Below, one piece after another: positions 40,699-61,442 of a stretch of 64,000 bases of DNA (position 1 is the stretch's first letter; every line of letters starts with the position of its first letter). Below the pieces are notes generated by a model. It searched no databases. It saw only the letters and a list, made by a program, of their open reading frames with translations, and had not been told where the DNA came from. The stretch comes from Kofleriaceae bacterium (GTDB lineage: Bacteria > Myxococcota_A > Polyangia > Haliangiales > Haliangiaceae), in NCBI GenBank assembly GCA_965215005.1, contig CBDCCZ010000010.1, positions 156,063-220,062 of the forward strand, written 5' to 3'. The translations under genes and the position numbers were made by a program.

Positions 40699-40714
40699 AA
40701 GCCGCAGCTGCGCT

Positions 40715-40885: not shown

Positions 40886-41153
40886 GGATAGCGCGGGCAA
40901 GGACACGTTCACCGGCGCCATTGGGGTTCGCTACCATCACCAGCTCGCTAGTGGCGCTTGGCTGCGCCCCGGCATTGCCTACGCGACGGCGCTAGACGAC
41001 CCATGGCCGCGTCCTCCTATCACATCCTGTTCGTGGACGTTCCCCTCGCGTTCTAGAGAAGATGACGTCATAAAACACTCCGCACCCAAACCTCCCAGCG
41101 TCACTTGGATCCAACCGCTGCTCGAGGAGGACGGCTAGAGCCGCGAACACGTC

Positions 41154-41660: not shown

Positions 41661-41679
41661 GCGCAGGAGAACACGCAGA

Positions 41680-42855: not shown

Positions 42856-42865
42856 GGAGGACGCC

Positions 42866-43357: not shown

Positions 43358-43394
43358 TTGGCTAACAGACTGGCAAGCTCGCCAGGAGTGATCA
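43295..43394 (+). repeat. ~100-bp direct repeat, copy 2
   Basis: Diverged copy of 40040-40138 (a few substitutions and one inserted base). Confidence 0.92.
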
Positions 43395-43414
43395 GCGGGC
43401 CGCCACACTTGCTG

Positions 43415-45049: not shown

Positions 45050-45408
45050 GTCAAATGACGCATTGCAAACGCGGCGCCGCTCACGCTGCCTCCGCTCGCG
45101 GGCCGCGGCGCCGGCTGCAGCTACGCGAGATCACGCACCAGCGCCGCTCCCCGCCAGCGCCAGCGGCTGTCGAGCAGACGCCACCAACGGCTCCGCACGC
45201 CCCGACGGCAACCGCACTGTCCGGCGCTCGCAGTTGCGCCTTCCACCAGCCGACACCTCGCCACCCGAGCAGCCAACCACCCTCCGCGCATGCGGTCGGC
45301 GAGCCTTAGCCGAACGTAAGCTCATCGGCCGAGCAAATGCTGCTCGAGGAACTGGACCGTGAGGAGCTGATAGATGTCTCGGTTCTTCTTCTATGCTCGA
45401 GCAGCCGC

Positions 45409-46275
45409 TCACTCGCCGACGCTGAGGCGGCGCAGCTCGATGGTCGCGGCAATCCGATCGACACCGAGCAGGATTGACTCGAGGAGCTCACTACCCTCGG
45501 CGAAGCTCGCTGGCGCCAGGTTGTCGACGCGGCGGCCGCGGCCGATTGCTCCCTCCACCTGCCAATGCGCCGGCTCGCTGCCCGATACCACACCGATGGC
45601 GATTCCGCGGTGGCTGTTCATCAAGCTGAAGCAAGGCACATCGCTGTAGCCATCGCCGACATAGATCATCTGGCTGAACGGAATCGCGACGTCGTCATCA
45701 CTCAGCGGGCTGTGCAGGTCGGGTACGAAGTCGCCGTCGTCGTTGCCATGCACGCCGCGGGCAATCTGCAGCAGGTAACGAGTCTTCTCGGTGTGACTGA
45801 TGGTGCGCTTGGGAAAACAGATGACGCCGTCATCGTCGAAGGCGAAGCGGCTGGCATAAATGGCGTCGAGCTGCTGGGCCAACGCAGCATGTTCGATGAT
45901 GTCGCCGATGCCGGCGCTCACGATGTAGAGCTCGACCGCGGCACTGCAGCCCTGCTGCTTCAGTCGATCACGAACGCGGTCGAATAGCTCGATCGCGCCC
46001 GCATGCAGCGTCAGCTCGCGACCGTGCGCCGCTAATCGCTCGCGCGTAACCGGCCCGCCGAGAGCGCCGCTGCGGCTCATCTGCACCAGTACCCACATGC
46101 GCGCCAGGATCGGACTCCAGCCGCCGTCAATCAGCGGCTGCGTCTCGTCGTCGAATTCGCTCATGCTCGAGCCGTTGGCCCGCAAAAATGACTTCAGGCA
46201 GTCTGGCGCCAGCGTGTCATCGAAATCGAACACCAGCGCCAAGCGATCGTAGAGTCGAAGCGTGGAAGACGGCAC
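45409..46275 (-). CDS. HAD superfamily hydrolase
   Basis: FDFDDTL (motif I), YIVSAG (II), K (III) and YVGDGYSDVPCF (IV). Confidence 0.9.
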   Translation of the reverse strand: MPSSTLRLYDRLALVFDFDDTLAPDCLKSFLRANGSSMSEFDDETQPLIDGGWSPILARMWVLVQMSRSGALGGPVTRERLAAHGRELTLHAGAIELFDRVRDRLKQQGCSAAVELYIVSAGIGDIIEHAALAQQLDAIYASRFAFDDDGVICFPKRTISHTEKTRYLLQIARGVHGNDDGDFVPDLHSPLSDDDVAIPFSQMIYVGDGYSDVPCFSLMNSHRGIAIGVVSGSEPAHWQVEGAIGRGRRVDNLAPASFAEGSELLESILLGVDRIAATIELRRLSVGE

Positions 46276-47083
46276 GAGCCGAGAGTAGCGGCGCCACGTC
46301 TCGACGGCCAGTCCACCGGTTCAACTGGTCCGAAGGCTGAGGCGAACCGCGCCTAGTGGCGCATGAGGATCTGTTGCCGGTAGGTAGCAAGCCGTTGCCA
46401 AGCGGTGACAGTAAGGCGTCGCAATCACGTGCAATGGGGGCGCTGCGGCCTGGTCCAGCGCTTGCTGCAAGGGGTTGCATGGAGCCTTCAGCGAAAGAAG
46501 TATGCGGCTACTCGCAGCGCGTGTTGATCGACGCGCATCTGCCGGGGGTTCGCGGCGGCAACGCCATCAACCGGCCGGCCGTGGCGGCGGGAGTTTTCGC
46601 GTGGGCCTTGCAGACGGCTAGCCCGACGCAGTCGGCGCCACCGGCTATAGAAAGCGTTAGCGACACGATGTCGCGACTTACGGTGAACAGGGTACTGCAC
46701 CGGATCTCTCCTGATAGGCAGATCGGGTCGTTGATGTCGCGAGCTGTCGTCAATCGCTTCGCCTGATTCCTCGGAGCTCGGCTGCGTTTGCGTCACATCG
46801 CGGAGATGCTGTTCGGCAGGCAACTTTTAGCCGCGACCAGTAATGCGATTTGAACGTCAGCAAGTCCGGCCAGGTCGCACCGGATTGGCAGGTTGCCACT
46901 TGCTAATTCCAGAAGAAACGCAGCATCGCATGATGATCGTGCTGCTCCCATTGAGCGCGCCGGTCTGGGAAGCAGGACCGCAACCAGCTGGCCGAGGGTT
47001 CCATAAGCAGCCAAGGCCGCTCCTTGGGAAACACTGCAATGGGCCGGCGAGCGTTCTGAATTCCGTCTTGAGCGAGGTGTGTC

Positions 47084-48073
47084 GTGATCGATAGAAGTAA
47101 CGAAGTCTACGCTGAACTGATCGACGTCACACTGCGCGATGGCGGTTACCTAAACCAGCACGAATTCGCGGCAGACGACATCGACGGGATCGCCGGCGGT
47201 ATTAGCGCAGCCAGAATTCGATATGCGGAGATTGGCTATTACCGGCCTAGTTACGGCCCACACGCGCTGGCGGCGCCCGCGCGCTGTGACGCCCAGTATC
47301 TTCATCGCCTCCGTCGGCACCTCCCTGAGGCGAAGCTCGTGTGCATGGTACATCCGTCGCAGGTGCCTGCCGAGAGCTTGGACGAGCTCGCCGATCAGGG
47401 AGCGGACGTCGTACGTCTGGCGGTAACGCCGAAGACGCTCGTTGGGGCCCGTGCACACGTCCAGGCCGCCCGAGCTGCTGGCCTGATCGGCTCGGTCAAC
47501 TTGATACGAGCCAGCGAGCTGCCCGTGCAGTCCATTCTCGATACCGCGGCGCAAGCCGAGGATGCGGGAGCGCACTGGTTCTACGTTGCCGACTCCAACT
47601 CCGGCATGCACCCGGACGGCGTAGCACGCATCTTTGATGCGCTGCGCGCTAGATCTACGTTGCGCATCGGCTTTCATGCGCATAACGCCCTTCAGCTCGC
47701 GCTCGCCAATAGCCTAAGCGCCATTCGGTCGGGTGCCACACTGATAGACGGATCTCTTGGCGGCATGGGTAAGGGTGGCGGCAACTTACCTACCGAGCTG
47801 ACCGCCGCGGTTCTGAACGCCATGGGTGTGACCGAGTACCGGCTCGGGCCTCTCGCGGCGGTCGTCGAGCGACACATTCGCAAGTGGACGTCGGGGGTAA
47901 GCGCCTACGAGCGCTCGATTAGCGCGTTGTTGAATCTCAATCTCGAGCAGTACGAAGCATTCGAGCGCGAGTCCCGCGCTACGCATCAACCGCTGCTCTC
48001 GCTCCTGGAAGAAGCCCTCCGCACCGGCGATCGAGATCGGGCGGCTCCTGGAATCAAAACCGCGACCCTGTAG
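47084..48073 (+). CDS. DRE-TIM metalloaldolase, 4-hydroxy-2-oxovalerate aldolase (DmpG/NikB/RhiG)-like
   Basis: [61 protein letters not shown] upstream. Confidence 0.88.
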
Positions 48074-48855
48074 TGAGCTTTACGATGAACACACACGAAT
48101 TCCTCCGGTCCCTTGACGAGCAAATCGGCTCGCGGAAGAAGATGACGAGCCCGCTCTACCAGATCATCATGAGCGGCAAGGCCACGCCGCGACTGCTGAA
48201 GAACATGGTGCTGCAGCGGTGGCCCATCAAGAGCTTCTGGACCCGCAACATCCTCGGCATCGCGTCGCGCGTCGAAAACTACGAGCTTCGCAAGAGCCTG
48301 GTCGAGAACATCTACGAAGAGGAGACCGGCGCAATGTCGCGCTCTCGCCGCCACCTCGAGACCTTCGCCGACTTTGGCGCCTGCGTTGGCGTCGAGCGGG
48401 CGGCGCTCGACACCGTCGAGCCGTTGCCCGAGACCCGGGCGGTAGTCGACCACAACGTTGCCGTATGCAACACCGAGATTCACTTTACGGCCGGCGTGGC
48501 CTCCGTCTTGCTGCTGATGGAGGGCCAGCCGCCGATCGTCCGCAGCGACGGTCAGAGCATGGAGGCGGTGATGCGCGACGTCTACGAGCTGCCGCCGCAA
48601 GGCGTCGAGTATTTCACCCATCACGCCTCGTCCACGGCGGAGGACGAGCACGTGAGCGAGCTCGAAGACGACCACGCCCGCGCCGCGCGCGAGCTCCTCG
48701 CGCGCTACTGCGATACGCCCGAGCTGCGCGCCCTGGCCTCAGATAGCCTGCGCCGAGCCATCGAGCTGCGTCACCGCCACTTCGAAGCACTCGTCCACCA
48801 CTACTTCGACGAGTCCGAGCGGCCCTTCCGGTGGAGCGAGCGAGGCGCATCATGA
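48073..48855 (+). CDS. Heme-oxygenase-like diiron oxidase (HDO; CADD/PqqC/TenA-like fold)
   Basis: ENIYEEETG...HLETF..F, MEGQ and YFTHH...EDDH match the E/H/E/H/D-E/H metal-ligand pattern. Confidence 0.8.
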
Positions 48856-49772
48856 GCGGCGCTTCGCGACCACGCGTCGTCTATCACGACGGCGCGTACG
48901 TGGCTGAATCCGCCGCCGTTGTCCCGGTGGCGTCGCAGGCGATGCGCTATGCGTTGTCGGTCTTCGAGGGCGTTCGCATGTATACGCGATCGGCCCAGGA
49001 GCGGCCGCGTGCGTTTCGCCTCGAGGACCATCTTCGGCGCCTGCGCCAGTCCCTGCGGGTCATGCAGATGCCCTGCGACGACCTCGACACCCTCCCTGCG
49101 ATCATCGAGCGTCTCGTCGATGACAACGCGATCGATCACGACTGCTACGTCCGCATCGCGGTCAGCGTGGTGTCGCCCGGAACCATGCGCGAGCTAGCGA
49201 TTCGCACCGCGACTACCGTCAGTGTGACGTCGATGGGCCGTAAGTCATGGCTCGCCGAAGGGCGGGCCATGCGGGTCTGTATCGGCCCCTGGCAACAACC
49301 GGCCGCTCTCGCCTTCCCACCCGAAGTCAAGTGCATCGCGCGCTACGCCGGGGCTCGCATGGCATCGCTGCAGGCGCGCCGATCCGGCTACGACGAGATC
49401 ATTCTGTTGGGTGCAAACGGTCACCTCACGGAAGCCCCCACGGCAAACCTGTTCCTGGTGCGCGACGGCATCGTATGGACACCGCCGGTGCGCGATGGCG
49501 CTCTTCCGGGCATCACGCGGGCGACCCTGCTCGAGCTAGCGGCGTCTCGCGGGCTCACGGCACGGATCGAGTCCCTGAGCCGCGACGACGCCTATGGTGC
49601 CGACGAAGCGTTTGTGTGCGGCACCGGGCTCGAGCTCGCACCGATCGAGTCATTCGATGGCCTGCCCGTCAGCTGCCAAGGCCTGGGGCCTATCACCAAA
49701 TCGCTCATCGGCGCCTACTTCGAGACCGTTCGGTCGTCGACTGACGGTCGCGCAGCCTTGGGGGCACTGTGA
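48852..49772 (+). CDS. Class IV PLP aminotransferase (branched-chain/D-amino acid type)
   Basis: [25 protein letters not shown] (PLP lysine), [14 protein letters not shown] and [10 protein letters not shown]. Confidence 0.92.
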
Positions 49773-51145
49773 TCGATTGGCCGACTACCGCAAACGTGTT
49801 GGCGTGCCTCGAGCCGACCGCCGCCGCGGCCTTGGCCGAGCAAGTTGCCACGACGCTCCGCGAGGCGCCGGTGTTTCGCAACACCGACTATCCATTCACG
49901 CCGGTCCCGATGTTCGTCGAGAGCCGCGCCTTGAGTGCGCTCATCGAACGGACGCAAACGTACGTCGCGCTGCTCGAGAAGGTCATTCGGCTGTACCGCG
50001 AGCACGGAGATGTCCGGCGCTTCTTCGGCCTCGATCCCGCGGCCGAGGGGCTGGTGGCCACCCGTTCCGGTCTAGCTCGCGAGATCGCCATCTGCCGGCT
50101 TGACGGCTATTTAACGGCCGGCGAATCGCAGCTCTGCGTGCTCGAGAACAACTCGGACTGTCCGGCGGGCACGCTGTTCACCCAGCGCTTGAACGCCGCC
50201 ACGGATCACGTCATCTCGGCCACCCTGTCATCGCTCGGGTTGATGAGCCGAGCGATGCCCGCCGATGTGCCGGGCGCCATGCTCGAGGCGCTGCTGTCGA
50301 GCTATCGCGCATGGGGCGGCGGAGCGTCGAGCCCCCGGCTCGCGATCCTCCAGCTGGCCGGCCGATCAAACGTCGAAAGCCATGAGATGGCCGCCGAGTT
50401 CACGCGCCTCGGAGTCGCGGCGGTCGTGCTCGATCCGCGCGAGGCAACCTTCACCCTGGGCGGCGTGCACCACGAGGGCGAACGGATAGACCTCGTGTGG
50501 AACAAAATCAACACCGCGAGCTTTCGCGACCTGCTCGCGGAGTATCCAGACGCGGTCGAGCAGTGGCGACGCTGCATCGACACCGGCGCCATCTGCCACC
50601 TCAACGGGTTCGGCGCCCGCTATGTCACCGAGAGCAAGCTGTGCACCGCGTTCGTTCAGGAAGAAGCCTTCGCGCCGCTCTTCGACGACGCCGAGCGCGA
50701 GCTCGTGGCCACGCTCTTGCCCTGGGCGCGCAAGGTCGAGGCTGACCGCTCCGTCGATTGGCGCGGTGACCGCGTCGATTTCGTGTCGCTGCTTCTCGCC
50801 CGCCAGATGGACTTCGTCCTCAAGCAGCCCTATGACATCCGCGGTGACGGCGTCACGGTTGGGCGAGGTGTCGACCGAGACACCTGGTGCGCGGCGGTGG
50901 CCAGCGCTGTCCGCGATGGACACGTCGCGCAAGCCTACGTGCGTCCCACGACCGTCCCGATCGTGACCGACCTAACGCCGCGGATCACACCGATGCCCGC
51001 CAGCCTGGACACCTTCTTGTTCGAGGGCCGGTTTCAGCTACTCGGCAGCAAGGCAAGCTTTCACGACAAGCTGAACCTCTTCCAGGGCGGGCGAAAGATC
51101 GCCGTGCGCGTTGCCGCGCCCATCCCCGCCGCTGACGGCTCATGA
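49769..51145 (+). CDS. Circularly permuted ATP-grasp ligase (glutathionylspermidine-synthase-like fold), #1
   Basis: RLDGY, VLENNSDCPAG, ESK, FVLKQPYDIRGDGVTVGR and VAQAYV. Confidence 0.8.
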   Translation: MIDWPTTANVLACLEPTAAAALAEQVATTLREAPVFRNTDYPFTPVPMFVESRALSALIERTQTYVALLEKVIRLYREHGDVRRFFGLDPAAEGLVATRSGLAREIAICRLDGYLTAGESQLCVLENNSDCPAGTLFTQRLNAATDHVISATLSSLGLMSRAMPADVPGAMLEALLSSYRAWGGGASSPRLAILQLAGRSNVESHEMAAEFTRLGVAAVVLDPREATFTLGGVHHEGERIDLVWNKINTASFRDLLAEYPDAVEQWRRCIDTGAICHLNGFGARYVTESKLCTAFVQEEAFAPLFDDAERELVATLLPWARKVEADRSVDWRGDRVDFVSLLLARQMDFVLKQPYDIRGDGVTVGRGVDRDTWCAAVASAVRDGHVAQAYVRPTTVPIVTDLTPRITPMPASLDTFLFEGRFQLLGSKASFHDKLNLFQGGRKIAVRVAAPIPAADGS

Positions 51146-52164
51146 GGGAGATCCGTGTTCATGGCGACGCCTTCCAGCGCGGCGTTCAGCATGGCCGCCA
51201 AGCCGGCGCCGCGATCCGCGCGTTCGTCGCCGATCGCATGGCACGCGTCAATGCGCTCCGGCCGCGGCCGCTGGAGCCGAGGCACGTGGTCGCCCGGTGC
51301 CGAGAACATGCAGCCATCGTCCGTGAATGCCTTCCGGCGCTCGACCGCGAGATTCGCGGCTTGGCAGCCGGCGCCGAGATTTCCGCCGACGATGCCTACC
51401 TCCTTCAGCTACGCCGGGAGCTCATCGCCTTCGACCGCGACTGTAGCTCGCTCGCCTACGTGGATCCCGAGGCCGGGCCGGTCATCGCTCAAAACGTGGA
51501 TCTACCCGGAGGCATGGCGCCCCTAGCCACCATCCTCCGTGTCGACGATCCGTTGGCGCCGCGGCACTGCCTGGTCACCTTCGCCGGCCTTCTCGGATAT
51601 CTGGGCATCAACGAAGCCGGCGTGGCCATCGGCATCAACATGGTGCTCTCGGACGACTGGCAGGTCGGCGTTCCGCCGTATCTGCTCGTGCGCCACTGCC
51701 TAACCCTCACTAGCATCGACGACATCATCCACGAGCTGCAGCGCATCCCCCGCGCCAGCTCGCGGAGCTTTTTGGTGGCCGACGCGCATGAGGTCGTTAA
51801 CATCGAGATGACCGCGCGTGAGCTGCGGGTGCTGCGCAGCCCGCTGCACGTGCACACCAATCACTTCCTTCACCCAGAGCTCGCCGTTCACGAGACGCTC
51901 GACGCCGACGCGCGGGCGCGCTCGAAAACGCGCCTCGAGCGTCTGCGATCGCTGGTCGACGGCGGCGCTCTCACCGTCGATGGCGTCGGTGACTTCCTCG
52001 CCGACCATGGCCCCGAGGGGGCCAGCATTTGCGCTCACACCGACGGCGACCTTCGTCGCGGCGAGACCGTCGCCTCGGTGGTCCTGACACCCGGGCGGCG
52101 CTCACTTCGGGCGCTCGCCGGCCACCCTTGCCAGAACTCTTATCGAACATTTTCTCTGTCATGA
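51142..52164 (+). CDS. C45 family autoproteolytic acyltransferase/hydrolase (Ntn hydrolase, IAT-like)
   Basis: RGVQHG, EIRGLAAGA, D-C-S-S autocleavage Cys, AQNVD, GINEAGVAIGIN and HTNHF. Confidence 0.88.
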   Translation: MREIRVHGDAFQRGVQHGRQAGAAIRAFVADRMARVNALRPRPLEPRHVVARCREHAAIVRECLPALDREIRGLAAGAEISADDAYLLQLRRELIAFDRDCSSLAYVDPEAGPVIAQNVDLPGGMAPLATILRVDDPLAPRHCLVTFAGLLGYLGINEAGVAIGINMVLSDDWQVGVPPYLLVRHCLTLTSIDDIIHELQRIPRASSRSFLVADAHEVVNIEMTARELRVLRSPLHVHTNHFLHPELAVHETLDADARARSKTRLERLRSLVDGGALTVDGVGDFLADHGPEGASICAHTDGDLRRGETVASVVLTPGRRSLRALAGHPCQNSYRTFSLS

Positions 52165-52982
52165 CGCAACGAATTCAGCACTACAACGTATTCGGCGCCG
52201 ACGACGCGTCGGGCAACACGGCGGCGGTCCTGCCGCAAGACGATCGCGATGACCAGGCCATGCGACAAGTCGCGGCGTCGGTCTCGGCGGTCACCACGGT
52301 CTTCGTCGCCCCCGCCAGCGATGCGGCGGCCGCGGTTCGCTTCTTCACCGCCACGTCCGAGCTGTCGCTGTGCTTCCACGGCCTCTTGGCCGCCAGCGCC
52401 TGGGTGCTCGATGAGCGCGGAGCCGATGCCGTAGCGCTCCGCATCGGCGATCGGCGATTCCGCGTCCAACGGCAGGACCGCGTGCATTATGTCGAGGCGG
52501 GTGAGTATCGCGAGGCCCCGTCGCCCCTTGCCGAGGCCGACGCACTCGCGCTGCTTGGCCTCGACGTCGACGACCGCGGCGACGGCCCCCTCTGCGTCGC
52601 CTCGATCGGCAGCCCCAAGCTCCTCGTCTCCGTCGCGGATCCGCGTCGCTTAGCCGCGGCTCGACCGAATCTAGCGGCCATGGCCGATGCCAGCAAGATG
52701 CACTCCTTCAATGGCGTTTACGCCTACGCCGCTGCCTCGGCTGCTGATCCGGTGCAGATCGACGCGCGCGGCTTCAATCCCCTGCACGGCGTCGATGAGG
52801 ATCCGGCCACCGGTGTCGCCGCCGGCGCTCTTGGAGCGGCACTGTCTAGGCGCGGAAGACTGCGCGGCGGGTGCGAAATCTCGCAAGGCACGGCGCTGGG
52901 GCAACGAAACCGCATTTACGTCGCTGTCGGCGACACGGTTCGCGTCGGCGGCACCGTTAGGAACAGCGAGGTGGCGAGATGA
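52161..52982 (+). CDS. PhzF family isomerase/epimerase
   Basis: NVF....GNTAAV, VRFFT..SELSLCFH, SIGSP, EDPATG.AAGAL and QG..LG. Confidence 0.88.
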   Translation: MTQRIQHYNVFGADDASGNTAAVLPQDDRDDQAMRQVAASVSAVTTVFVAPASDAAAAVRFFTATSELSLCFHGLLAASAWVLDERGADAVALRIGDRRFRVQRQDRVHYVEAGEYREAPSPLAEADALALLGLDVDDRGDGPLCVASIGSPKLLVSVADPRRLAAARPNLAAMADASKMHSFNGVYAYAAASAADPVQIDARGFNPLHGVDEDPATGVAAGALGAALSRRGRLRGGCEISQGTALGQRNRIYVAVGDTVRVGGTVRNSEVAR

Positions 52983-53650
52983 ACGCGCTCACAGTCGAAG
53001 TCGTCGATCAATTCGGTCGGCTCAGCACCGCAACGATCTCCGACGCCATGGACACCCTCGGGCTCCCCGCCGGCTGCCATGGAATTCGCCCGATGATCGC
53101 AGCTCGATCCTTCGTGGGATTGGCCCATACGATTCTCTACGCGCCCGCGCGCGCCGGGCAGAAGTCTCCCGCGCCCAACTACCTCAACGACATCGCAGCC
53201 GGGTCCGTCGTCGTGATCGACAACGGCGGGCGCACCGAGTGCACAGCGTGGGGCGATCTGCTGTCTCTAGCGGCATTGCAACGAGGCATCGCCGCCACGG
53301 TCATCGACGGCGCCTGCCGTGACGTCGACGCGATCGAGGCCATCGGCTACCCGGTGTTCGCCAAAGCTGCCTTCATGATGTCGGGAAAGAATCGCAACCA
53401 AATGGTCGCGGCGCAGGTCCCCGTGACCATCGGCGAGCGCGAGGTCACCCCCGGCGACATTCTCCGCGGCGACGGCAGTGGCGTGGTCGCGGTGCCGAGC
53501 GCGCGAGCGCGCGAGGTGCTCGACATCGCCCTGCGTATCGAGGAGGTCGAAGGCTACATTCGCGACGACGTCAGCCGCGGCGGCTCGCTCGCCGAGTCCC
53601 GCAAGCGGCATGGGTACAACGCGTTTGGCTGGCGCGGGGAGCCGCGATGA
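52979..53650 (+). CDS. RraA-like / 4-hydroxy-4-methyl-2-oxoglutarate (HMG) aldolase family protein
   Basis: STATISDAMD, VVVIDNGG, WGDL, DGACRDVD and PGDILRGDGSGVV. Confidence 0.9.
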   Translation: MNALTVEVVDQFGRLSTATISDAMDTLGLPAGCHGIRPMIAARSFVGLAHTILYAPARAGQKSPAPNYLNDIAAGSVVVIDNGGRTECTAWGDLLSLAALQRGIAATVIDGACRDVDAIEAIGYPVFAKAAFMMSGKNRNQMVAAQVPVTIGEREVTPGDILRGDGSGVVAVPSARAREVLDIALRIEEVEGYIRDDVSRGGSLAESRKRHGYNAFGWRGEPR

Positions 53651-54873
53651 GCGACGCCAAGGCGGCCATGGCCGTCACCGCGCGGCGCGAGGGCATCGTC
53701 GGCTCCGGCGCGTCGATCATCGTCGACGGTGCTGAGCTCGCCGCCGACGAGCTCGCAGCGCTGAGCGTGCGTCTGCGTGAGCTCCTGGCCCTGCTCTGCG
53801 ATTTACCCGAGCGTCACGCGCCGCGCGGCCGCGGGCCGCTGGCGCTCTCCTTGGGACATCGCACCGATGAGCTGCCGCTGATCACCGCCGACGCGGCGCC
53901 CTTGGACCCAAACGCGCTCTTTCGCGTGGATCTAGTGCACAGCGGCGGCCGCTGGCGGGTCCTGGAGGTCAACGCCGACAGCACCGTTGGCGGCTTGACG
54001 TACGCAGCGCTGCCCCGTTTGACCGGCGCGCGCCGTTGCCAAGACGCCCTGTCGCGCTGGGCTGACGCGGTCGCTAAGCGATGCGCGGAGCGCGGCCGCG
54101 GCGCGATTATCGAGGACGAAGCGTGCGTCGCGGCCATGCGTCCAACCCTCGAGCGGATGGCAGCGGAGCTTGAGCAGCGCCTTCGCGTGCCGGTTCCAGT
54201 CATCGGCCACCGCGCCGCGCGCGCGGTCGGCACCGAGCTGCACGGCCCGCACGGCGCGCTCGGCTGGATCTATCGGTTGTTCTGTCTCGACGATATCCGC
54301 CGCGATCCGACCGGCTACGCCGGCCTTCGTGAGGCCCTCACCACCGGCCGAATTGCCGCGCCGTTCGGCTTCGAGTACCGCGTGGCCGGCAACAAAGCGG
54401 CTCTGGCTAAAGCTTGGCAGCTCCGCGACGACGGGCAGCTGAGCGCTAGCGAGGCTCGCGCGGTCGAAGAGCTGGTGCCGCGCACTAAGCTGGTGACGCG
54501 CTCGGCGATGGATGAGCTGGTCGCGCGTCGAGGCGAGCTCGTGCTCAAGCCCGCCGAAGGCTACGGCGGCATCGATGTCGTCATCGGCCGCGAGCACGCG
54601 GCGAGCGCGTGGAAGGCCAAGCTCGTCGAGCTCGTCGAGCCTGGTGCGCCACGCTTCGTCGTCCAGGACTACGTCCAGCCGCAGAAGCGCCCAGTCGTCA
54701 TCTCGCGCCCGGACGGTCAGCTCCTGTCCGGGCTCGCGCATCCGGTGTGGGGCGTGTTCGTGACCGAGGGTGAGGCGACCGGAGCAATTCTCCGCGCGAG
54801 CCTGGCCGACGGCGCCGCGGTGGTCAACGTTCGCGCCGGGGCCGCGGCGGGCCCGGTCGAGGTCGTGGCATGA
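53647..54873 (+). CDS. Circularly permuted ATP-grasp ligase, #2
   Basis: FRVDL, VLEVNADSTVGG, GNKAALA, LVLKPAEGYGGIDVVIG and VVQDYV. Confidence 0.8.
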   Translation: MSDAKAAMAVTARREGIVGSGASIIVDGAELAADELAALSVRLRELLALLCDLPERHAPRGRGPLALSLGHRTDELPLITADAAPLDPNALFRVDLVHSGGRWRVLEVNADSTVGGLTYAALPRLTGARRCQDALSRWADAVAKRCAERGRGAIIEDEACVAAMRPTLERMAAELEQRLRVPVPVIGHRAARAVGTELHGPHGALGWIYRLFCLDDIRRDPTGYAGLREALTTGRIAAPFGFEYRVAGNKAALAKAWQLRDDGQLSASEARAVEELVPRTKLVTRSAMDELVARRGELVLKPAEGYGGIDVVIGREHAASAWKAKLVELVEPGAPRFVVQDYVQPQKRPVVISRPDGQLLSGLAHPVWGVFVTEGEATGAILRASLADGAAVVNVRAGAAAGPVEVVA

Positions 54874-55760
54874 CCATCCTCATCCTGTGCCGCGAGCCAA
54901 CGCTCGACGTCACCGCGCTGGCTGCCGAGCTCGAACGGCGAGGCCACCAGGTGCTCGTTGCAGTCCCTGACCAAGTGGCCGTGGCCATGAACGAGCGACA
55001 GGTCGCCGTGCGAGTCGCCGGCCGGCAGGTCGACGTCGACGTCGTCTTCGGCTGGGTGTCGCTGCACGAGCGCGTGCGCGGCACCTGGCTCCTGCAAGCC
55101 TTCCGCGAGCTCGGTGTTTTGGTCATCAACGGCGCCGCCGTGCTCGACCTTGGCCAGAACAAGTTCCTGGCGTCTGTGCGAATGGCGCGGCTCGGCATCC
55201 CGCACATCCGCTCGGCCATCGCGTCATCGCACGCCGATGTGCAGCACTTCGCGCAAGTGTTGGGCTTGCCGATCGTCGTCAAGCCGATCGTCGGTGCCAA
55301 GGGGGACGGGGTGCAGCTCGTGCACGACGCGACCGAGCTGGCGGCGATCGCCGAGTCCTACTTTGCGCGTCGCGAGCCAGTGTACTTGCAGGAGCCGATC
55401 GACAAGCCGAGCCGCGACATTCGCGTGCGCGTCATCGACTATCGCGCCGAGCTGGCGTTCTACCGCTATGCGGCGCCCGGCCAGTTCGTCACCAACCTGG
55501 CCCTCGGCGGCCGCTGGGAGCCGTGTCCGCTCACCGAGCCGCTGAGTGCGCTCGCCGAGCAGTGCGCGCGCGCGTTCGACGCCCCAGTTGCCGGCGTCGA
55601 CGTCCTCGAGGACCCGGCCGGCGCGCTGCGAGTCATCGAAATCAACGTTACCCCGGCCATCACCTGGCCGGACGCGTCCACCGTTCAGTCGGTGTGCACC
55701 CTGCTCGAGGGAGCCGCCCGAGGAGATGCCAAAGATGGCCATCTTGATCTTCAACCGTAG
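54870..55760 (+). CDS. RimK/LysX family ATP-grasp ligase
   Basis: VINGA, NKFL, GIPH, PIVVKPIVGAKGDGV, YLQEPI, RDIRV, TNLALGG, GVDVL and IEINVTP. Confidence 0.92.
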   Translation: MTILILCREPTLDVTALAAELERRGHQVLVAVPDQVAVAMNERQVAVRVAGRQVDVDVVFGWVSLHERVRGTWLLQAFRELGVLVINGAAVLDLGQNKFLASVRMARLGIPHIRSAIASSHADVQHFAQVLGLPIVVKPIVGAKGDGVQLVHDATELAAIAESYFARREPVYLQEPIDKPSRDIRVRVIDYRAELAFYRYAAPGQFVTNLALGGRWEPCPLTEPLSALAEQCARAFDAPVAGVDVLEDPAGALRVIEINVTPAITWPDASTVQSVCTLLEGAARGDAKDGHLDLQP

Positions 55761-56937
55761 CTCCGTCTTCGATTATCCGAGCTGGCTCGCCGACAGCGAT
55801 CAAGAGCTGGTCGTGTTCACGCAGCGCGAGATCCCGACGAGCGAGGCTTACGCGGCGCTCGAGACCTTCGATAGCTTCGACCGATCGGGTCGCGCAGAGC
55901 TCCGCGCGCTCGAGCTGCGCGAGCGCTACCAGTGGCGCCACGTGTTTGGGCACTCCGAGTACGATCTGGTGCGCGCTGCGCGCTTGCGCGAGCGGCTGTC
56001 GCTGCCGGGCCAGAGCGTCGAGAGCGCCCAAGCGTACCGCGACAAGGCGCGGATGAAGGAACACGCCAGCGCGAGCGGCATCGCGGTACCCGCATTCCGC
56101 CGCTTGTCTTCGCCCCTCGATCTCGTCGATTTCGCCGACGCGCACGGCTATCCGGTGGTCGTCAAGCCGATCGACGGCGGCGGCTCGCGCGGAGTCTCGG
56201 TCTTGCGCGACGCCGCGGCGGTCGGCCAGTTCCTCGAGATGCTGCCCGATCGCCCTTACATAATCGAGTCGTTCGTCGCCGGCGAGATGTATCACGTCGA
56301 CGGCGTTTGGCACGAAGACCGGATGCTGTTCGCGGCAGCCTCGCGCTATTTGGCGGGGTGTCTCGCCTACCAGCGTGGCGACAGCCTCGGCAGCATGATT
56401 CTGCCGCCGCAAAGCGCGCTCCATGGCCGCCTCGTCGACGAGACGACGGCCATCATCCGCGCTCTGCCCAGGAGCCCGCTGGTGGCCTTCCACGCCGAAA
56501 TCTTCGTCACCGACGACGGCCGCATGGTCCTGTGTGAGATCGCCAGCCGCACCGGCGGCGCGCTGGTCGCTGAGACCCTCGAGGTCGCCTACGGCGTCAA
56601 CATCAACCGGCTGTGGACGCGTCTGGCCTGTGGCCTGCCGGCCGATAGCGAGCCGCGTTCCGCGCCCGCGCCCTACGCCGGCTGGCTGGTGATCCCACCG
56701 TGCAAGGGGGAGCTCCTCGACGCTCCGCAACAGGCGCCGTTCGAGTGGTGCGAGCGCTTCCTTGTGCCTGCCAAGGCCGGCGACCGATGCACCGCGCCGG
56801 TCGCCAGCGTCGATCACGTCGCCATGGCGATCGTCACCGGCGACAACGAAACCGAGGTCGAGGAACGACTGCGCCGGGTCGATCGCTGGTTCGCCGACAC
56901 CGTGGTCTGGAACGAGCATGCCGACGAAGCCGCATAG
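55735..56937 (+). CDS. ATP-grasp L-amino-acid-ligase-type protein (NikS/RhiM/BacD-like)
   Basis: SEYDL..AARLRE, RDKARMK, GYPVVVKPIDGGGSRGV, ESFVAGEMYHVDG, FHAEIF and CEIASRTGG. Confidence 0.9.
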   Translation: MAILIFNRSSVFDYPSWLADSDQELVVFTQREIPTSEAYAALETFDSFDRSGRAELRALELRERYQWRHVFGHSEYDLVRAARLRERLSLPGQSVESAQAYRDKARMKEHASASGIAVPAFRRLSSPLDLVDFADAHGYPVVVKPIDGGGSRGVSVLRDAAAVGQFLEMLPDRPYIIESFVAGEMYHVDGVWHEDRMLFAAASRYLAGCLAYQRGDSLGSMILPPQSALHGRLVDETTAIIRALPRSPLVAFHAEIFVTDDGRMVLCEIASRTGGALVAETLEVAYGVNINRLWTRLACGLPADSEPRSAPAPYAGWLVIPPCKGELLDAPQQAPFEWCERFLVPAKAGDRCTAPVASVDHVAMAIVTGDNETEVEERLRRVDRWFADTVVWNEHADEAA

Positions 56938-58147
56938 CACCGTCCTTCGCGCCTACGTCGCGGCGACGGCGACCAACTTCCTCGGCACTGGAGTGCAGGG
57001 AGTCGCGGTGCCGTGGCTCCTGTTGGAGCTCACCGGCTCGGCGGCCGCCGTTGGCATCCTGCTCGTGCTCCGCGCGGTGCCAAACATCGTGCTTTCGTCC
57101 TACGCCGGCGTGTTGGCCGACAGCACCAGCCGCCGGCGCATCGCCGTGTGGGCCAGCACCATCCAGGGCTGCGCAGTCTCGCTCGTGGCTGCGGCCGTCG
57201 CCCTGGGCCATCGCGACCCGCTGCTCTTGTACGCAATGACCGCGGTGGTCGGCGTAGGCAACACGTTCTTCTTTCCCGCGACGCGCGCTTTTATGCAGAG
57301 CGCCGTCGATCGCCGCGCGTACGTCGGCCTCGCGTCGATGACTGAAACCGCCATGCAGCTGGGGATGATCGCTGGGACCGCGCTCGCCGGTCCGCTGATC
57401 GTCGGCGTCGGTGCGGCGGGGGCGCTGGCCGTCGACGCGCTGTCGTTCTTGGTCGCCGCGGCGATCTTTGCACGGATGCCGGAGCAGGCCCCGATCGAAC
57501 CCCAATCCCGTGCGCCACGGCGCACGAGCCTAGCGCAGCCCCTCGAGGGCCTGCGCTACATCTATGGACGACCGCACCTGCTCGTCGCGGTCTTGCTCAG
57601 CATGATCCCGCTCGTCTGCGTGCAGGTCGACAACGTCCTGGTCGCCGCGTTCACCCGCGATGTGCTCGGCCTGGGCGCGCAAGGTTTCAGCTTGATCAAC
57701 CTCACCTATGCGGTCGGAGCGATGACCGCCGGTGCAACGATCGCCAGCTGGGCCAAGAGGTCCGCCGACCGCCCGGCATTCATCGTCGTCGCATTGGCGG
57801 CGCTCGGGGCCGCGCACGTGAGCTTCGGCATAAGTCGAACCGGGCTGGTGGCGGTGCTCGCCATGCTCGCGATTGGCCTCACGGTGGTGGCCGCGCGATC
57901 GCACCTGGCGGCGCTGGTGATGCACGCGACCGACACCAAGTTGGCCGGTCGTGTCCAGGCAAGCGTGCAGCTGCTCTCAGGTTTGCTGGTGATGGCGATC
58001 GGTCTGTCGGTCGGCGGGCTGGCCGAGGTCACCGGCTATGCCGCAGTGTTCGGCGCGCTCGGCGCTTTGTGCGCCGGCGCCGCGATAGCGGCCGCCGCCT
58101 GCCACCGCCGCGACGCCGCCCGCGCGATGACACGCGGGAGCATCTAA
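56918..58147 (+). CDS. MFS transporter (probable exporter)
   Basis: About 12 hydrophobic helices; GVLADSTSRRR motif A; AGRVQA in the C-terminal half. Confidence 0.9.
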   Translation: MPTKPHSTVLRAYVAATATNFLGTGVQGVAVPWLLLELTGSAAAVGILLVLRAVPNIVLSSYAGVLADSTSRRRIAVWASTIQGCAVSLVAAAVALGHRDPLLLYAMTAVVGVGNTFFFPATRAFMQSAVDRRAYVGLASMTETAMQLGMIAGTALAGPLIVGVGAAGALAVDALSFLVAAAIFARMPEQAPIEPQSRAPRRTSLAQPLEGLRYIYGRPHLLVAVLLSMIPLVCVQVDNVLVAAFTRDVLGLGAQGFSLINLTYAVGAMTAGATIASWAKRSADRPAFIVVALAALGAAHVSFGISRTGLVAVLAMLAIGLTVVAARSHLAALVMHATDTKLAGRVQASVQLLSGLLVMAIGLSVGGLAEVTGYAAVFGALGALCAGAAIAAAACHRRDAARAMTRGSI

Positions 58148-58149
58148 AC

Positions 58150-60645
58150 GTGCGCCTTCTCGTCGCGCTCGCGGCGACCGCGCTCGTCTGCCTCGGCGTC
58201 AGCAGCGGTGCACGAGCCGAGGTTAAACAGGCGAAGGTCCAGCGCATCATCTCGCCACCTGTGATCGATGGAGCCCTCGACGACGAAGCGTGGCTGCCAC
58301 TGACCGAGCACGGCGAATTCGTACAGCGGCAGCCGCAGAGCGGAGCGCCGCTGCGCGACCAATCTCGCTTCCGGGTCGGCTTCGATGAGCAGGCCCTCTA
58401 CGTTGCGGTGCGGGCTCATGATGTCCAGGCCGATCGCATTGACAAGCCGTTGGCGCGCCGGGACGCGGAGCCGACCTCTGACTGGATTCACGTCGCCATC
58501 GACACCGACGTCGACGGCCAGAGTGCTCTCGAGTTCGCCGTCAACCCAGCAGGTGTGCTCGTCGACGCGCTGTGGACGAGAGACAACCGGCGCGATGTCA
58601 CCTGGGACGGTCAGTGGACGGCAGCGGCCGACGTCGACGACGGCGGCTGGAGCGCCGAGTTCCGCATACCCCTCGCTTCGCTGCGCTTGCCCACCGCCGG
58701 CACCGAGCTCGGCTTTCAGGTGTGGCGACGGACCAATCGCACCGGCGAAGTCTCCTATTGGTCGACGACGCCGGCCCAGGACCCGCACATCGTTCGCCAC
58801 TTCGGCCGTATCGCTGGCCTCACCGTGCCGGCCGCCGAGCAGCGCCTCTCAGCTCGACAGCACGTCCTGCTCGTCGGCGAGCATGTTGCCGGCGCGCGCG
58901 ACGCGGCGCTCGAACTGTCGCTCGATGTCGAGTATGCCCTGTCCGAGGATATCGTCATCGAGGCGAGCCTCAACCCCGACTTCGGTTTCGTGGAGGCGGA
59001 TCCGGCGGAGATCCATCTCAGCGCCCTCGAACGATTCGTCGTCGAGCGGCGGCAGTTCTTCAACAGCGGCCGCGAGCTGTTCCTCGTGCCCCTGGGCACC
59101 GGCGTCGATACGCTGCTGTACTCGCGGCGCATCGGTCGGCCGCCGCAGGGTCGCGTGAGCCCAGCTGATGGCGCGAGCGCGCAGGTCCCGGCGGCAACCG
59201 ACGTACTCGCCGCCGGCAAGCTCCTCGGACGCGTGGCGGATCGGCTGCGGGTTGGCGCCATCCTAGCGACCACCGACCAAGCGCGGGCGCGCGTGTCGAC
59301 GAACGGCGTTACCAGCCAACGGATCGTCGAGCCGCTGACGCAATACGCGGCTGTACGCGTCGTCGATGCGCCAAGCGACGCGAGCCGCCGCATCGGCGGG
59401 CTGCTCACGGCCGTACACCGCCTTGGCGATGACACGGCTGGTCTGCATCGCACCGCCGTCACCGGCGCCGTCGACGGCTCGTGGCAGCTCGGCGCGCAGC
59501 ATCGCGCCGACGTGGTGCTACTCGGATCGTGGCTCCACGGCAGCGCCGAATCGATCGACCGCGTGATGCGCTCCCCGGTGCATTACTTCCAGCGTCCGGA
59601 CGCCGATCACCTGCAGGTTTCGGGCGTGTCGACCTCGCTCGGCGGCTACGGCGGTTACCTTCGCATTGCCAAGACGGGTGGTGTGCCGGTGCGCTACGGC
59701 GCCGATCTCGCCGTGTTCGGTCCCGGCCTCGAGCTTGGCGACCTCGGCTTCCTCAGCCGCGCCGACACCGCGCGCGCGCAGATGTCCGTTAGCCATCACG
59801 TCGTCGGTGACGGCGGGGCAGTCAGCGCCGTGGACACCGACCTGGCCGCGCGCGTAGCCTCCACCTTCGGCGGGGAGATCACCGACGCCGCGCTCATCTT
59901 GCAGTCGTCACTGCGTCTGCGCAATCAATGGACGATGACCGGCAGCGGGCGTCTGACTGCCAGAGTTCTCGATCCCACCATCTTGCGCGGTGGCCCGGCG
60001 CTGCGGACCGAGCCGTCGGGGCTGCTCGCAGCCACTGTCATCACCGATGAGCGAAAGCGAGCGCGGGGAGCGCTGACGCTGCGCGCCGCCGCCGACACCG
60101 AAGCGGCATGGGCAGTGCGAGCGATCCCGGAGCTCATGCTGCAACCGTCGCCCCGGCTGCAGGTCGACCTCGGCCTCAACGCAAGCAGGAGCATGCTCGA
60201 TCATCAGTTCGTGGCCGCCGGCGACGACCGCATGGGCGCCACGGTGGGCGCGGTCGCCGTCGACTCACTGGCAGTCACCGTGCGGTTATCACTGGCCTTC
60301 ACGCGCCGGCTGAGCGTGCAGTACTACGCGCAGGCGTTCTTGTCGGGCGCCAACTATCACGACTTCCGCGCCGTAACGATGCCCAACGCGGAGCGATATG
60401 CGACCCGTTACGCGCCCACAGTAGTCGCCGATGAGCCTGACTTCGCCGCCCACGAGCTCCACGGCAACCTCGCGCTTCGCTGGGAGATCCGCGAGGCGAT
60501 TACATTGCTCGTGCTCTGGAGCCACGAGCGCCAGCGTCGCAGCGATGATGGCCGCCTCGCCGTAGACGATGGCGTCGTCGAGCTGTGGGAAACCGCCGCC
60601 GAAGACACCATCCTCATCAAGCTCAGCAGTTGGTTCTCGCACTGA
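58150..60645 (+). CDS. CBM9-like plus DUF5916 outer-membrane protein
   Basis: Signal peptide; PVIDGALDDEAW, FAVNPAG, WDGQW, GWSAEFRIP, NPDFGFVEAD, ERRQFF, LLYSRRIG and terminal IKLSSWF. Confidence 0.85.
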   Translation: MRLLVALAATALVCLGVSSGARAEVKQAKVQRIISPPVIDGALDDEAWLPLTEHGEFVQRQPQSGAPLRDQSRFRVGFDEQALYVAVRAHDVQADRIDKPLARRDAEPTSDWIHVAIDTDVDGQSALEFAVNPAGVLVDALWTRDNRRDVTWDGQWTAAADVDDGGWSAEFRIPLASLRLPTAGTELGFQVWRRTNRTGEVSYWSTTPAQDPHIVRHFGRIAGLTVPAAEQRLSARQHVLLVGEHVAGARDAALELSLDVEYALSEDIVIEASLNPDFGFVEADPAEIHLSALERFVVERRQFFNSGRELFLVPLGTGVDTLLYSRRIGRPPQGRVSPADGASAQVPAATDVLAAGKLLGRVADRLRVGAILATTDQARARVSTNGVTSQRIVEPLTQYAAVRVVDAPSDASRRIGGLLTAVHRLGDDTAGLHRTAVTGAVDGSWQLGAQHRADVVLLGSWLHGSAESIDRVMRSPVHYFQRPDADHLQVSGVSTSLGGYGGYLRIAKTGGVPVRYGADLAVFGPGLELGDLGFLSRADTARAQMSVSHHVVGDGGAVSAVDTDLAARVASTFGGEITDAALILQSSLRLRNQWTMTGSGRLTARVLDPTILRGGPALRTEPSGLLAATVITDERKRARGALTLRAAADTEAAWAVRAIPELMLQPSPRLQVDLGLNASRSMLDHQFVAAGDDRMGATVGAVAVDSLAVTVRLSLAFTRRLSVQYYAQAFLSGANYHDFRAVTMPNAERYATRYAPTVVADEPDFAAHELHGNLALRWEIREAITLLVLWSHERQRRSDDGRLAVDDGVVELWETAAEDTILIKLSSWFSH

Positions 60646-60767
60646 GGCGGCCGGGGCTGGATCCAACGAGCCTTGCATAAGCAAGTCGATCGAGGCGCCT
60701 GCAAAGAAAAAGCTAACCGTTCACTGCCGGTGTTGAATCAACGGGCTGCCGGTGCGAATTCGTCGGC

Positions 60768-61100
60768 ATGAATCAATCAAATCGAGCGCTGGTCGAGCAG
60801 ATTGAGCAGTTGGTGCGCGAGCATTTGGAGGTGACGCGGCGCGCGGTGGCGGCGGCGGTCGAGCAGGCGTTTTCGCCGATGCCGGAGGCGTCGCGGGGAC
60901 GCACTCGCAGCGAGGTGTCGCGGGTGAGGCGGACAGCGAGTCGCGGTCGGCGGTCGAAGACCGAGTTCTTGGCGCTTACTGAGCGCTTACACGAAGCCAT
61001 GTGCGCGCATCCCGGCGAGACGATGTCGGTGTTGGCGCCAATATTCGGCACGACAGCGCGCGAAATGGAGGGGCCGGTGAAGGCACTCAAGCGGGCAACT
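60768..61100 (+). pseudogene. Truncated putative DNA-binding accessory protein
   Basis: IEQLVREHL...RRSKTE..ALTERL.EA.CAHPGETM.VLA; the sequence turns to antisense of the transposase fragment afterwards. Confidence 0.5.
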
Positions 61101-61149
61101 GCGCTTGCGCCACAGCACGAAATCGCGCCAGCTCGAGCTCGCCATCGTT

Positions 61150-61348
61150 GTTTGTTCTTTGAGTTGCGGCCGACGAGCTCGGTGAGCTTCGCGACTTGCT
61201 CGGCCAGCGCCGCGATCTGGGCGTCGCGCTCGGCTAATTGGGTGTCGCGCTCAGCTAGCTGGGCGTCGCGCTCGGCTAGCGTCGTCTCGAGCGACGTTAT
61301 CCGCGCCTCGAGATTGCGCGGGTCATCAAGCTCGTCGCCAGCCGCCAC
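61150..61348 (-). pseudogene. IS66-family transposase N-terminal fragment (coiled coil, DUF6444-like)
   Basis: LAERDAQ heptad repeats followed by VAKLTELVGRNSKN, then abrupt loss of homology. Confidence 0.7.
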
Positions 61349-61423
61349 GTCGACGTTAGATCATGATCGGATCCGCCCGTCGATCCCCTCCGCGACGGAA
61401 AAAGCAGGGGCGTGAACGGATAC
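61267..61423 (+). repeat. 157-bp direct repeat, copy 1 (IS66-like end)
   Basis: Matches 63666-63822 with three substitutions seen. Confidence 0.95.
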
Positions 61424-61442
61424 GTCGGAACAGCGCCCGAGC

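Follow-up and report, generated by a model that had tools for sequence, protein, structure and literature searches.

An 11-gene operon with four ATP-grasp ligases of three subfamilies in a Kofleriaceae bacterium: a candidate pathway to a peptide-like metabolite

Characterized pathways close to the gene cluster considered here use one or two ATP-grasp ligases: two in the formation of mangotoxin (PMC13185094), and one, together with an amide bond synthetase, in the fungal pathway to E-64 (PMC12568646), as described in the available parts of these reports. In the mangotoxin mbo cluster, a heme-oxygenase-like diiron oxidase (HDO) is combined with free-standing ATP-grasp amino acid ligases to give a short antimetabolite peptide, and the same partial source counts 1447 HDOs that adjoin ATP-grasp ligases, in at least 25 cluster types that are mostly uncharacterized (PMC13185094). 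The myxomiditides are specified by a cluster that also has four ATP-grasp ligases but, in the accessible portion of the source, these macrocyclize a ribosomal precursor, which places them in a different class, the peptides that are made by the ribosome and modified after translation (RiPPs; PMC12848669). Here we describe an operon of 11 genes (47084-58147, plus strand) in a stretch of 64,000 nucleotides from a Kofleriaceae bacterium (assembly GCA_965215005.1, contig CBDCCZ010000010.1, positions 156,063 to 220,062), referred to below as the window. This operon encodes four ligases belonging to three ATP-grasp subfamilies. On balance, we favor the view that it makes and exports a small peptide-like metabolite without the ribosome or a nonribosomal peptide synthetase (NRPS), with a five-gene cassette supplying the building block, ligase 1 supplying a handle and the other three ligases extending the chain.

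The window cluster and mbo share the pairing of an HDO with free-standing ligases. However, in the part of the source available to us, mbo comprises two ligases (MboC and MboD) along with a deiminase and a dedicated reductase, and the tripeptide is complete before the HDO acts on it (PMC13185094), whereas the window cluster has four ligases of three subfamilies, two aldolases, an aminotransferase, a C45-family protein and a PhzF-family protein. Cp1B, the E-64 ligase (structure 9cjn), has the same circularly permuted fold and the same motif as ligases 1 and 2 and likewise forms an amide in an NRPS-independent pathway, but it is only about 15% identical to them and, in the available text, is the sole ATP-grasp of its pathway, working with an amide bond synthetase; the E-64 warhead derives from fumarate by way of an Fe/2-oxoglutarate oxygenase, in contrast to the aldolases and HDO found here (PMC12568646). 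Word searches of the literature found no paper on the window's gene set, and this cluster type may already be among the 25 or more listed without study in PMC13185094, of which a part was available. The window thus holds a real, conserved cluster that is an uncharacterized variant of the NRPS-independent peptide pathways.

Four ligases in one operon

Neighboring genes of the operon overlap or abut, and every start/stop codon junction from 48073 to 56937 does so. The gene content is that of an NRPS-independent ATP-grasp cluster: free-standing ligases, building-block enzymes and an exporter, with neither an NRPS nor a precursor peptide. A Pfam scan of 47084-58147 found no condensation, adenylation or carrier domain and no uptake system. 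The last gene encodes a transporter of the major facilitator superfamily (MFS), MFS_3/EntS-like and likely an exporter (56918-58147; PF07690, 88.7 bits; PF05977, 73.5 bits); an in-frame ATG at 56918 falls within the last bases of the ligase 4 gene. The genome contains a single copy of the cluster. An earlier note, made from the DNA letters, had placed four ligases of three ATP-grasp subfamilies in one operon, starting at 49769, 53647, 54870 and 55735; the four reading frames lie exactly there, and the family profiles, the folds and the overlapping or abutting genes agree with the rest of that description.

Ligase 1 (49769-51145, plus strand, 458 amino acids) and ligase 2 (53647-54873, plus strand, 408 amino acids) were both called GspS-like in the earlier note. 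Sequence profiles and structure models indicate that they are circularly permuted ATP-grasps, so that fold and clade were rightly named, although GspS proper is a more distant relative of theirs than are glutathione synthetase and Cp1B. Ligase 1 was without a match in Pfam or NCBIfam; a word-indexed search gave 158 homologues, several bearing PF14403 and one of 800 amino acids (P0106) also bearing PF01063, i.e., a fusion to an aminotransferase domain. Ligase 2 is a second, divergent member of this type. It reached 27 bits against PF14403 (cut-off, 32) and had a single close homologue in the word-indexed search; an exhaustive search of representatives gave 695 at an E value of 1e-3 or lower and 36 at 1e-30 or lower. 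Within its family, 28 of 43 members matched PF14403 (E value of 0.01 or lower) and 8 of 43 matched PF03738, and an orthologue on a metagenome contig (L067, discussed below) scored 36.6 bits against PF14403. BLASTP aligned ligases 1 and 2 over 61 residues only (E value, 8e-5), while their family profiles matched each other over 345 columns (hhalign probability, 99.8%; E value, 3e-28). The best solved relative of both profiles was Cp1B, with E values of 7.8e-4 for ligase 1 and 9.4e-9 for ligase 2; the ligase 2 profile also matched the putative GspS Mfla_0391 (3n6x) at 4.8e-6.

The AlphaFold models of the two proteins are confident (mean pLDDT of 91 for ligase 1 and 95 for ligase 2) and point the same way. 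Foldseek matched the ligase 1 model to 8fbz (3e-17), 9cjn (3e-15) and 3n6x (4e-15) and the ligase 2 model to 5oes (3e-16) and 9cjn (1.7e-14), among others. Against 8fbz, 3kal, 5oes, 9cjn, 3n6x, 2io8 and 7uk8, both models gave a Foldseek probability of 1.00, E values of 1e-17 to 1e-10 and TM scores of 0.55-0.70. These matches comprise eukaryote-type glutathione and homoglutathione synthetases, Cp1B, Mfla_0391, the Escherichia coli GspS and YgiC/YjfC, and in both searches the GspS chains ranked below the glutathione synthetases. Thus eukaryote-type glutathione synthetase, GspS and YgiC/YjfC are top fold matches, but identity to glutathione synthetase and GspS is 10-16%, the amidase domain of GspS is missing and the setting is one of specialized metabolism. 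Neither protein matched PF03738, and lengths of 458 and 408 amino acids leave no room for an amidase domain.

Both ligases have a permuted motif order, with R-x-D ... E-x-N near the N terminus, ahead of the ATP-binding lysines and the glycine-rich loop. These residues align between the two ligases and with the acyl-phosphate motif 'RSD...EMN' of homoglutathione synthetase. The invariant residues are R110, D112, E126, N128, K290, K352 and Q388 in ligase 1 and R93, D95, E107, N109, K250, K301, Q340 and R383 in ligase 2 (five aligned sequences each). In Cp1B, alanine substitution of R139, D141, E163 or N165 abolishes or markedly reduces activity, and the enzyme shows that a dicarboxylic acid devoid of an amino group can be joined to an amino acid by a ligase of permuted fold (PMC12568646, available part). 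The motif of ligases 1 and 2 has the Cp1B pattern, a residue correspondence that we infer from pattern and fold rather than from an alignment.

Ligase 3 (54870-55760, plus strand) is a RimK-family ATP-grasp that lies outside any named equivalog. It passes the thresholds of PF08443 (79.9 bits; cut-off, 21), of the PF18030 pre-ATP-grasp domain (36.5; cut-off, 26.4) and of TIGR00768 (163.1; cut-off, 143.4), in agreement with its earlier description as RimK/LysX-like, but falls below the equivalog cut-offs of LysX_arch (139.8 versus 275.6), MptN (134.2 versus 350) and the RimK model PRK10446 (72.7 versus 331). Its solved relatives are LysX (3vpd; 8.5e-27) and RimK (4iwx; 1.4e-18), with both of which its ATP/Mg motifs align; K98, K138, D244, E257 and N259 are invariant in seven orthologues. 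Compared with RimK, LysX/ArgX and MptN/CofF, therefore, it shares family model and motifs but reaches no equivalog cut-off, has no LysW partner that we could find and forms a subfamily of its own, whose roughly 26 clusters, at 44-60% identity, include named members from Aneurinibacillus (including A. thermoaerophilus), Paenibacillus (including Paenibacillus sp. DS2015) and Pectobacterium. In five of the six loci found through this subfamily it accompanies the genes of the present cluster.

Enzymes of the LysX type may act on a carrier protein, and the earlier note had seen no LysW-like carrier in the window. The same holds for the genome as a whole, in an assembly that is 92.8% complete and of which 8,000 bases lay outside the scan: the best score against TIGR01206 was 19.4 bits (cut-off, 53.2), inside a frame of 1,556 amino acids, and EDWGE-type tails were absent from a six-frame scan of the 6.2-Mb genome. 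Upstream of the cluster, no small open reading frame (ORF) is conserved, and the operon has no gaps able to hold one. Since no LysW-type carrier was found and the LysX and RimK equivalog cut-offs were not reached, a small-molecule carboxylate, by analogy with MptN or CofF, is a likelier acceptor for ligase 3 than a carrier protein.

Ligase 4 (55735-56937, plus strand) is a classical ATP-grasp of the L-amino acid ligase (LAL) type, in line with the first part of its earlier label, LAL/NikS-like. It passes PF02222 (34.1 bits) and PF13535 (30.0 bits; both cut-offs, 27) and falls below LAL_C2 (18.8; cut-off, 29.4). Its best solved relatives are the L-amino acid ligase 4wd3 (E value, 4.8e-13; 52 bits), then 3vot (BL00235) and BacD. 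The named equivalogs are far from reached (BacD, 28.7 versus a cut-off of 850; DdaF, 27.5 versus 840). With BacD of bacilysin and the 4wd3 and 3vot enzymes it has in common the ATP-grasp core and E-x3-R-x2-G, but the matches are weak; the K...K...E-x3-R-x2-G pattern is kept in alignment to 4wd3 and 3vot. In six orthologues, 102 of 400 positions are invariant, including K104, K144 and E268-x3-R272-x2-G275. The earlier note had also named a lack of catalytic residues in one or more of the ligases as grounds for refutation. We find instead that the motif residues do not vary in any of the orthologues that could be aligned (5, 5, 7 and 6 sequences for ligases 1 to 4, respectively), and hence all four ligases are apparently active, with their catalytic motifs intact.

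The five-gene cassette and a possible amide handle

Ligase 1 belongs to a cassette of five genes whose order is usually kept: an HMGL-like aldolase, the HDO, a class IV aminotransferase, ligase 1 and an RraA-like aldolase. In the window the cassette opens the operon with an HMGL-like (DmpG-type) pyruvate aldolase (47084-48073, plus strand; PF00682, 95.2 bits), whose best solved relative is 4-hydroxy-2-oxovalerate aldolase (1nvm; 3e-26). The HDO (48073-48855, plus strand; PF14518, 91.1 bits) is distantly CADD-like, CADD, a p-aminobenzoate (pABA) synthase, being its only solved sequence relative (1.6e-5); three histidines and three glutamates (E84, H94, E150, H184, E198 and H201) are invariant in 46 orthologues. 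The aminotransferase (48831-49772, plus strand, with a possible start at the ATG at 48852) is of the branched-chain type (PF01063, 159.5 bits; NF005146, 216 bits, under the cut-off of 279). The RraA-like class II aldolase/oxaloacetate decarboxylase, the last cassette member (52979-53650, plus strand; PF03737, 127.8 bits), has 3k4i (1.4e-48) and the CHA aldolase 3noj (9e-16) as solved relatives and also matches NF006731 and TIGR02798. RraA-type aldolases make dicarboxylic 4-hydroxy-2-oxo acids. Two further genes lie between ligase 1 and this aldolase in the window. One encodes a C45-family autoproteolytic N-terminal-nucleophile hydrolase/acyltransferase (51142-52164, plus strand; NF040521, 219.5 bits with a cut-off of 85; PF03417, 70 bits), with Cys101 invariant in six orthologues and a start that overlaps the stop codon of ligase 1. 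The other encodes a protein of the PhzF isomerase/epimerase fold (52161-52982, plus strand; PF02567, 125.7 bits; TIGR00654, 108.3 bits with a cut-off of 76.2), with E67, H73 and D214 invariant in five orthologues.

We examined 50 genome loci that were found through ligase 1, so that its presence in them is by construction; the counts rest on tblastn and hmmsearch of all frames and on Pfam for selected ORFs, as our in-house high-GC gene caller misses or mis-starts genes. Of the other cassette members, an aminotransferase gene lay near the ligase 1 homologue in 48 of the 50 loci; for the HDO the count was 45, for the HMGL-like aldolase 44 and for the RraA-like aldolase 43. Going by their record titles, the loci span actinomycetes, cyanobacteria, myxobacteria, Acidobacteria, Chloroflexi, Eremiobacterota and one metagenome-assembled genome (MAG) titled Alphaproteobacteria. 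What follows the cassette varies. In 16 loci, mostly from actinomycetes, there is a ligase-2-type enzyme, in most cases with an MFS gene, an M20 peptidase and a LAL, and one locus (L032) also has a SARP regulator beside the cassette. In 15 others an MR_MLE (enolase-superfamily) gene and an M81/MlrC (microcystinase C-like) peptidase come after the cassette, without any other ligase (e.g., L012, 13130-14641, and L021, 12923-14062); this set of a ligase, an epimerase-like protein and a peptidase may be the minimal form of the pathway. Two cyanobacterial loci, from Microcoleus (L001) and Argonema (L003), combine the cassette with a penicillin amidase, an MR_MLE protein, a GCS2 carboxylate-amine ligase and an EamA transporter. 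An IS605 OrfB/TnpB gene is inserted right after the ligase in L001. In three loci (L008, L015 and L048) the companions of the cassette are NRPS modules, a stand-alone adenylating enzyme, C45 and PhzF. The RimK-type ligase was found in none of the 50. The window cluster therefore unites the C45 and PhzF partners of the NRPS type with the ligase 2 and LAL partners of the actinomycete type and adds a RimK-type ligase.

Ligase 1 is retained where NRPSs do the joining or where no other joining occurs, and it hence probably belongs to a building-block module and not to an assembly line. The proposal of a template-free peptide assembly line, made in the earlier note, is in keeping with the biosynthetic context and the exporter but must be amended on this point, as ligase 1 is part of a portable cassette found elsewhere with NRPSs or with only an epimerase and a peptidase. 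Among the 38 loci that extend over at least 16 kb, 33 have a gene for a C45, M20, M81 or penicillin-amidase protein within 10 kb of ligase 1, in most cases immediately downstream of it; this count was made without a background control. Over all 50 loci these four unrelated amidohydrolase families were seen 18 (M20), 15 (M81), 5 (C45) and 3 (penicillin amidase) times. Loci with C45 lack MR_MLE, M20 and M81, and the converse also holds; this mutual exclusion suggests that PhzF and C45 stand in for MR_MLE and the peptidase. Given the independence of the cassette from other ligases and the nearby amidohydrolase in 33 of the 38 long loci, the amide formed by ligase 1 may be a temporary handle that is absent from the product.

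There are models for such a handle. In the formation of beta-ethynylserine (BesA/BesC) and in the gamma-glutamylation of amines, a substrate is tagged with an amide handle by a ligase and modified as the conjugate by an oxidase (in the Bes pathway, an HDO), after which a hydrolase can take the handle off. The ligase in those systems is of the GCS2 or glutamine-synthetase type, in contrast to the permuted ATP-grasp here, and the analogy is one that we infer. A GCS2 gene stands beside the cassette in the two cyanobacterial loci, L001 and L003, only.

Conservation of the gene set and neighboring genes

The same gene set, with all four ligases, is present in two myxobacterial MAGs. The nearest relatives of ligase 1 are on contigs of MAGs labeled Kofleriaceae (L005; 59% identity) and Myxococcales (L007; 54%), and both contigs break inside the cluster. 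The missing halves lie on other contigs (L063 and L064) in the order (PhzF)-RraA-ligase 2-RimK-LAL-MFS-DUF5916, at 48-60% identity; first and second halves together show 48-76% amino-acid identity to the window. In L063 and L064 the MFS orthologues (54% identical) come after ligase 4. Identity is about 80% between the two MAGs (G401 and G402) and about 67% between them and the window; L065 belongs to the same lineage as L063 (99.5% nucleotide identity).

Further contigs were reached by a metagenome scan with the RimK-subfamily alignment; a metagenome scan with ligase 2 alone gave no loci. On one of these contigs, of 38% GC (L067), all 11 genes are present but reordered, as ligase 2-RimK-HDO-HMGL-C45-AT4-ligase 1-PhzF-RraA-LAL-MFS, where AT4 is the class IV aminotransferase. 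Another, of 30% GC (L066), has 8 of the 11 genes, in the order RimK-HDO-HMGL-C45-AT4-ligase 1-RraA-LAL, together with an M32 carboxypeptidase; ligase 2 and PhzF were not found on it. A third (L068), 2 kb long, carries ligase 2-RimK-HMGL. Ligase 2 and the RimK-type ligase are neighbors wherever both occur, namely in the window, L063/L065, L064, L067 and L068. The retention of the set through such reordering and such differences in base composition speaks against redundancy among the four ligases.

Directly downstream of the operon is a gene for a DUF5916/CBM9 protein (58069-60645, plus strand; PF19313, 116.8 bits; PF06452, 30.2 bits), whose real start is probably after 58147. Its orthologues (48% identical) directly follow the MFS gene in L063, L064 and L065, and an Atlas look-up returned DUF5916 clusters only. 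This protein may belong to the cluster, e.g., as an outer-membrane or surface component. The other genes that flank the cluster in the window are not common to the MAG copies, and the HAD-like gene directly upstream of the operon (45409-46275) has no counterpart on the L005 and L007 contigs. An ORF of 83 amino acids at 46843-47094, along with all frames of at least 20 amino acids in 46200-47150, had no conserved counterpart upstream of the cluster in related contigs and was treated as noncoding. A promoter and terminator scan of 45300-61500 gave no signal (one promoter-like site versus 1.5 expected and nine terminator-like sites versus 7.8 expected).

Farther upstream in the window, genes typical of cbb3-oxidase maturation and nitrosative stress (33574-45049; a FixG-like ferredoxin, a copper/cation P-type ATPase, NnrS and hemerythrin) and, in the same interval on the minus strand, a 544-amino-acid SLH-domain protein are unrelated to the cluster. 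An ORF of 215 amino acids (60768-61415, plus strand) has no family match, but partial paralogues on contig C14 of the same genome (G000; about 11,300-15,000; 68-89% identity over 60-106 residues) suggest that it may be a repeated or mobile gene. On contig C1 of this genome, at about 213,700-224,400, weak tblastn matches to the LAL-type ligase (29%) and to C45 (26%) lie about 10 kb apart and may mark another ligase-based cluster.

Proposed pathway and competing explanations

In the pathway that we favor, 2-oxo acids would serve the five-gene cassette as starting material for an unusual amino or dicarboxylic acid. After transamination, ligase 1 would furnish the new intermediate with an amide handle, and it is in this conjugated form that the HDO and the PhzF isomerase would modify it. 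The C45 hydrolase/acyltransferase would then split off the handle or exchange it. Chain growth with ordinary amino acids would fall to ligase 2, then to its neighbor, the RimK-type ligase (which likely attaches glutamate to a carboxylate), and to the L-amino acid ligase. Export of the product would be the task of the MFS pump. Each of the ATP-grasps would act via an acyl-phosphate, by analogy with its family. A bolder version, possible but doubtful in our estimate, is that the cassette, widespread and so far undescribed, makes a new amino-acid warhead by HDO chemistry on the ligase-installed handle and is plugged into NRPSs in some phyla, into the three-ligase actinomycete line or into the fullest known four-ligase template-free line, the product here being a new class of exported, possibly glutamate-tailed, antimetabolite peptide.

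Several observations weigh against the pathway that we favor. Substrate assignments for all 11 proteins rest on analogy, the HDO is without a close characterized relative (CADD being the best, at 1.6e-5) and both permuted ligases fall short of Pfam's own cut-off. The cluster was not found in six genomes of the same family, and a search with ligase 2 gave just two weak matches in 400 genomes of the same phylum; as L063 and L065 represent one lineage, and G401 and G402 are about 80% identical, its conservation rests on few lineages. Ligase 1 itself was the means by which the 50 cassette loci were chosen, no amidohydrolase of the four families was seen in 5 of the 38 long ones, and the association of ligase and hydrolase was counted without a background control although M20 peptidases are common. 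Finally, the aldolases, the aminotransferase and the peptidases would fit a catabolic pathway too.

How many amide bonds survive in the product bears on the most substantial of the alternatives, namely, that all four persist. Each ligase would then decorate a different handle of a cassette product with several of them (e.g., an amino-dicarboxylic acid, with two carboxylates and one amine) to give a branched pseudo-tetra- or pentapeptide, while the C45 protein would serve only as an acyltransferase or in self-protection. We regard this as unlikely but well worth weighing, as four non-redundant ligases are kept together in several lineages, RraA-type aldolases are known as makers of dicarboxylic 4-hydroxy-2-oxo acids (the NF006731 and TIGR02798 matches bear on this) and, in the available part of the E-64 report, enzymes of the Cp1B type amidate dicarboxylic acids (PMC12568646). 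However, ligase 1 stays with the cassette under NRPS assembly or without any other ligase, and an amidohydrolase stands beside it in 33 of the 38 long loci. The earlier estimate of up to four amide bonds is therefore possible, with four distinct, apparently intact and co-retained ligases on its side, but one of the four may be transient and three bonds are at least as likely.

The operon could also be read as one of catabolism or salvage, in which an imported amino acid or peptide is ligated to a handle, oxidized, hydrolyzed, transaminated and split by the aldolases to pyruvate. Aldolases of the HMGL/DmpG and RraA/CHA types are classic catabolic enzymes, the gamma-glutamylation pathways for amines offer a model, peptidases of four families accompany the cassette and one copy (L021) has genes for periplasmic binding proteins nearby. 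Such a role is hard to reconcile with an operon that has an EntS-like MFS protein and four ligases that consume ATP but no uptake system. The patchy distribution of the cluster also speaks against it, as do the copies of the cassette that share operons with an adenylating enzyme, a free carrier protein and NRPS modules or stand next to a SARP regulator; we consider the catabolic reading distinctly improbable. A pathway that is partly carrier-borne, with the RimK/LysX-type ligase acting on a LysW-like amino-group carrier or on the tail of a ribosomal protein, would accord with the best solved relatives of ligase 3 (LysX, at 8.5e-27, and RimK) and with its 139.8 bits against LysX_arch. This we hold to be highly improbable, given scores under the LysX and RimK equivalog cut-offs, genome scans that yielded neither a LysW match past the cut-off nor an EDWGE-type tail, the lack of a conserved small ORF upstream or of gaps in the operon, and the company of this subfamily with the cluster's genes in five of the six loci found through it. 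Lastly, pABA is the product of CADD, aminodeoxychorismate lyase is one of the class IV aminotransferases, and methanopterin and F420 are glutamylated by relatives of RimK. The weak matches in the operon to the folate-related CADD family (55.7 bits; cut-off, 200), to aminodeoxychorismate lyases, to MptN and to CofF might thus point to a glutamylated cofactor or another primary metabolite, to which we give very little credence: all of these matches are far under their cut-offs, the cluster was not found in the six same-family genomes searched, and the cassette is tied to NRPSs and exporters elsewhere.

The cluster is of wider interest. ATP-grasp ligases are sought as simple, protection-free catalysts of amide-bond formation, and the cluster offers four ligases that are probably non-redundant and are conserved together, two of them from a barely explored clade similar to Cp1B and glutathione synthetase and one from a new RimK subfamily for which no carrier protein was found in the genome. 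Elucidation of the product would assign a function to several large uncharacterized protein families and would likely reveal new HDO chemistry. It would also be a natural test of the replacement of NRPSs by ligases, or of ligases by NRPSs, as the assembly line.

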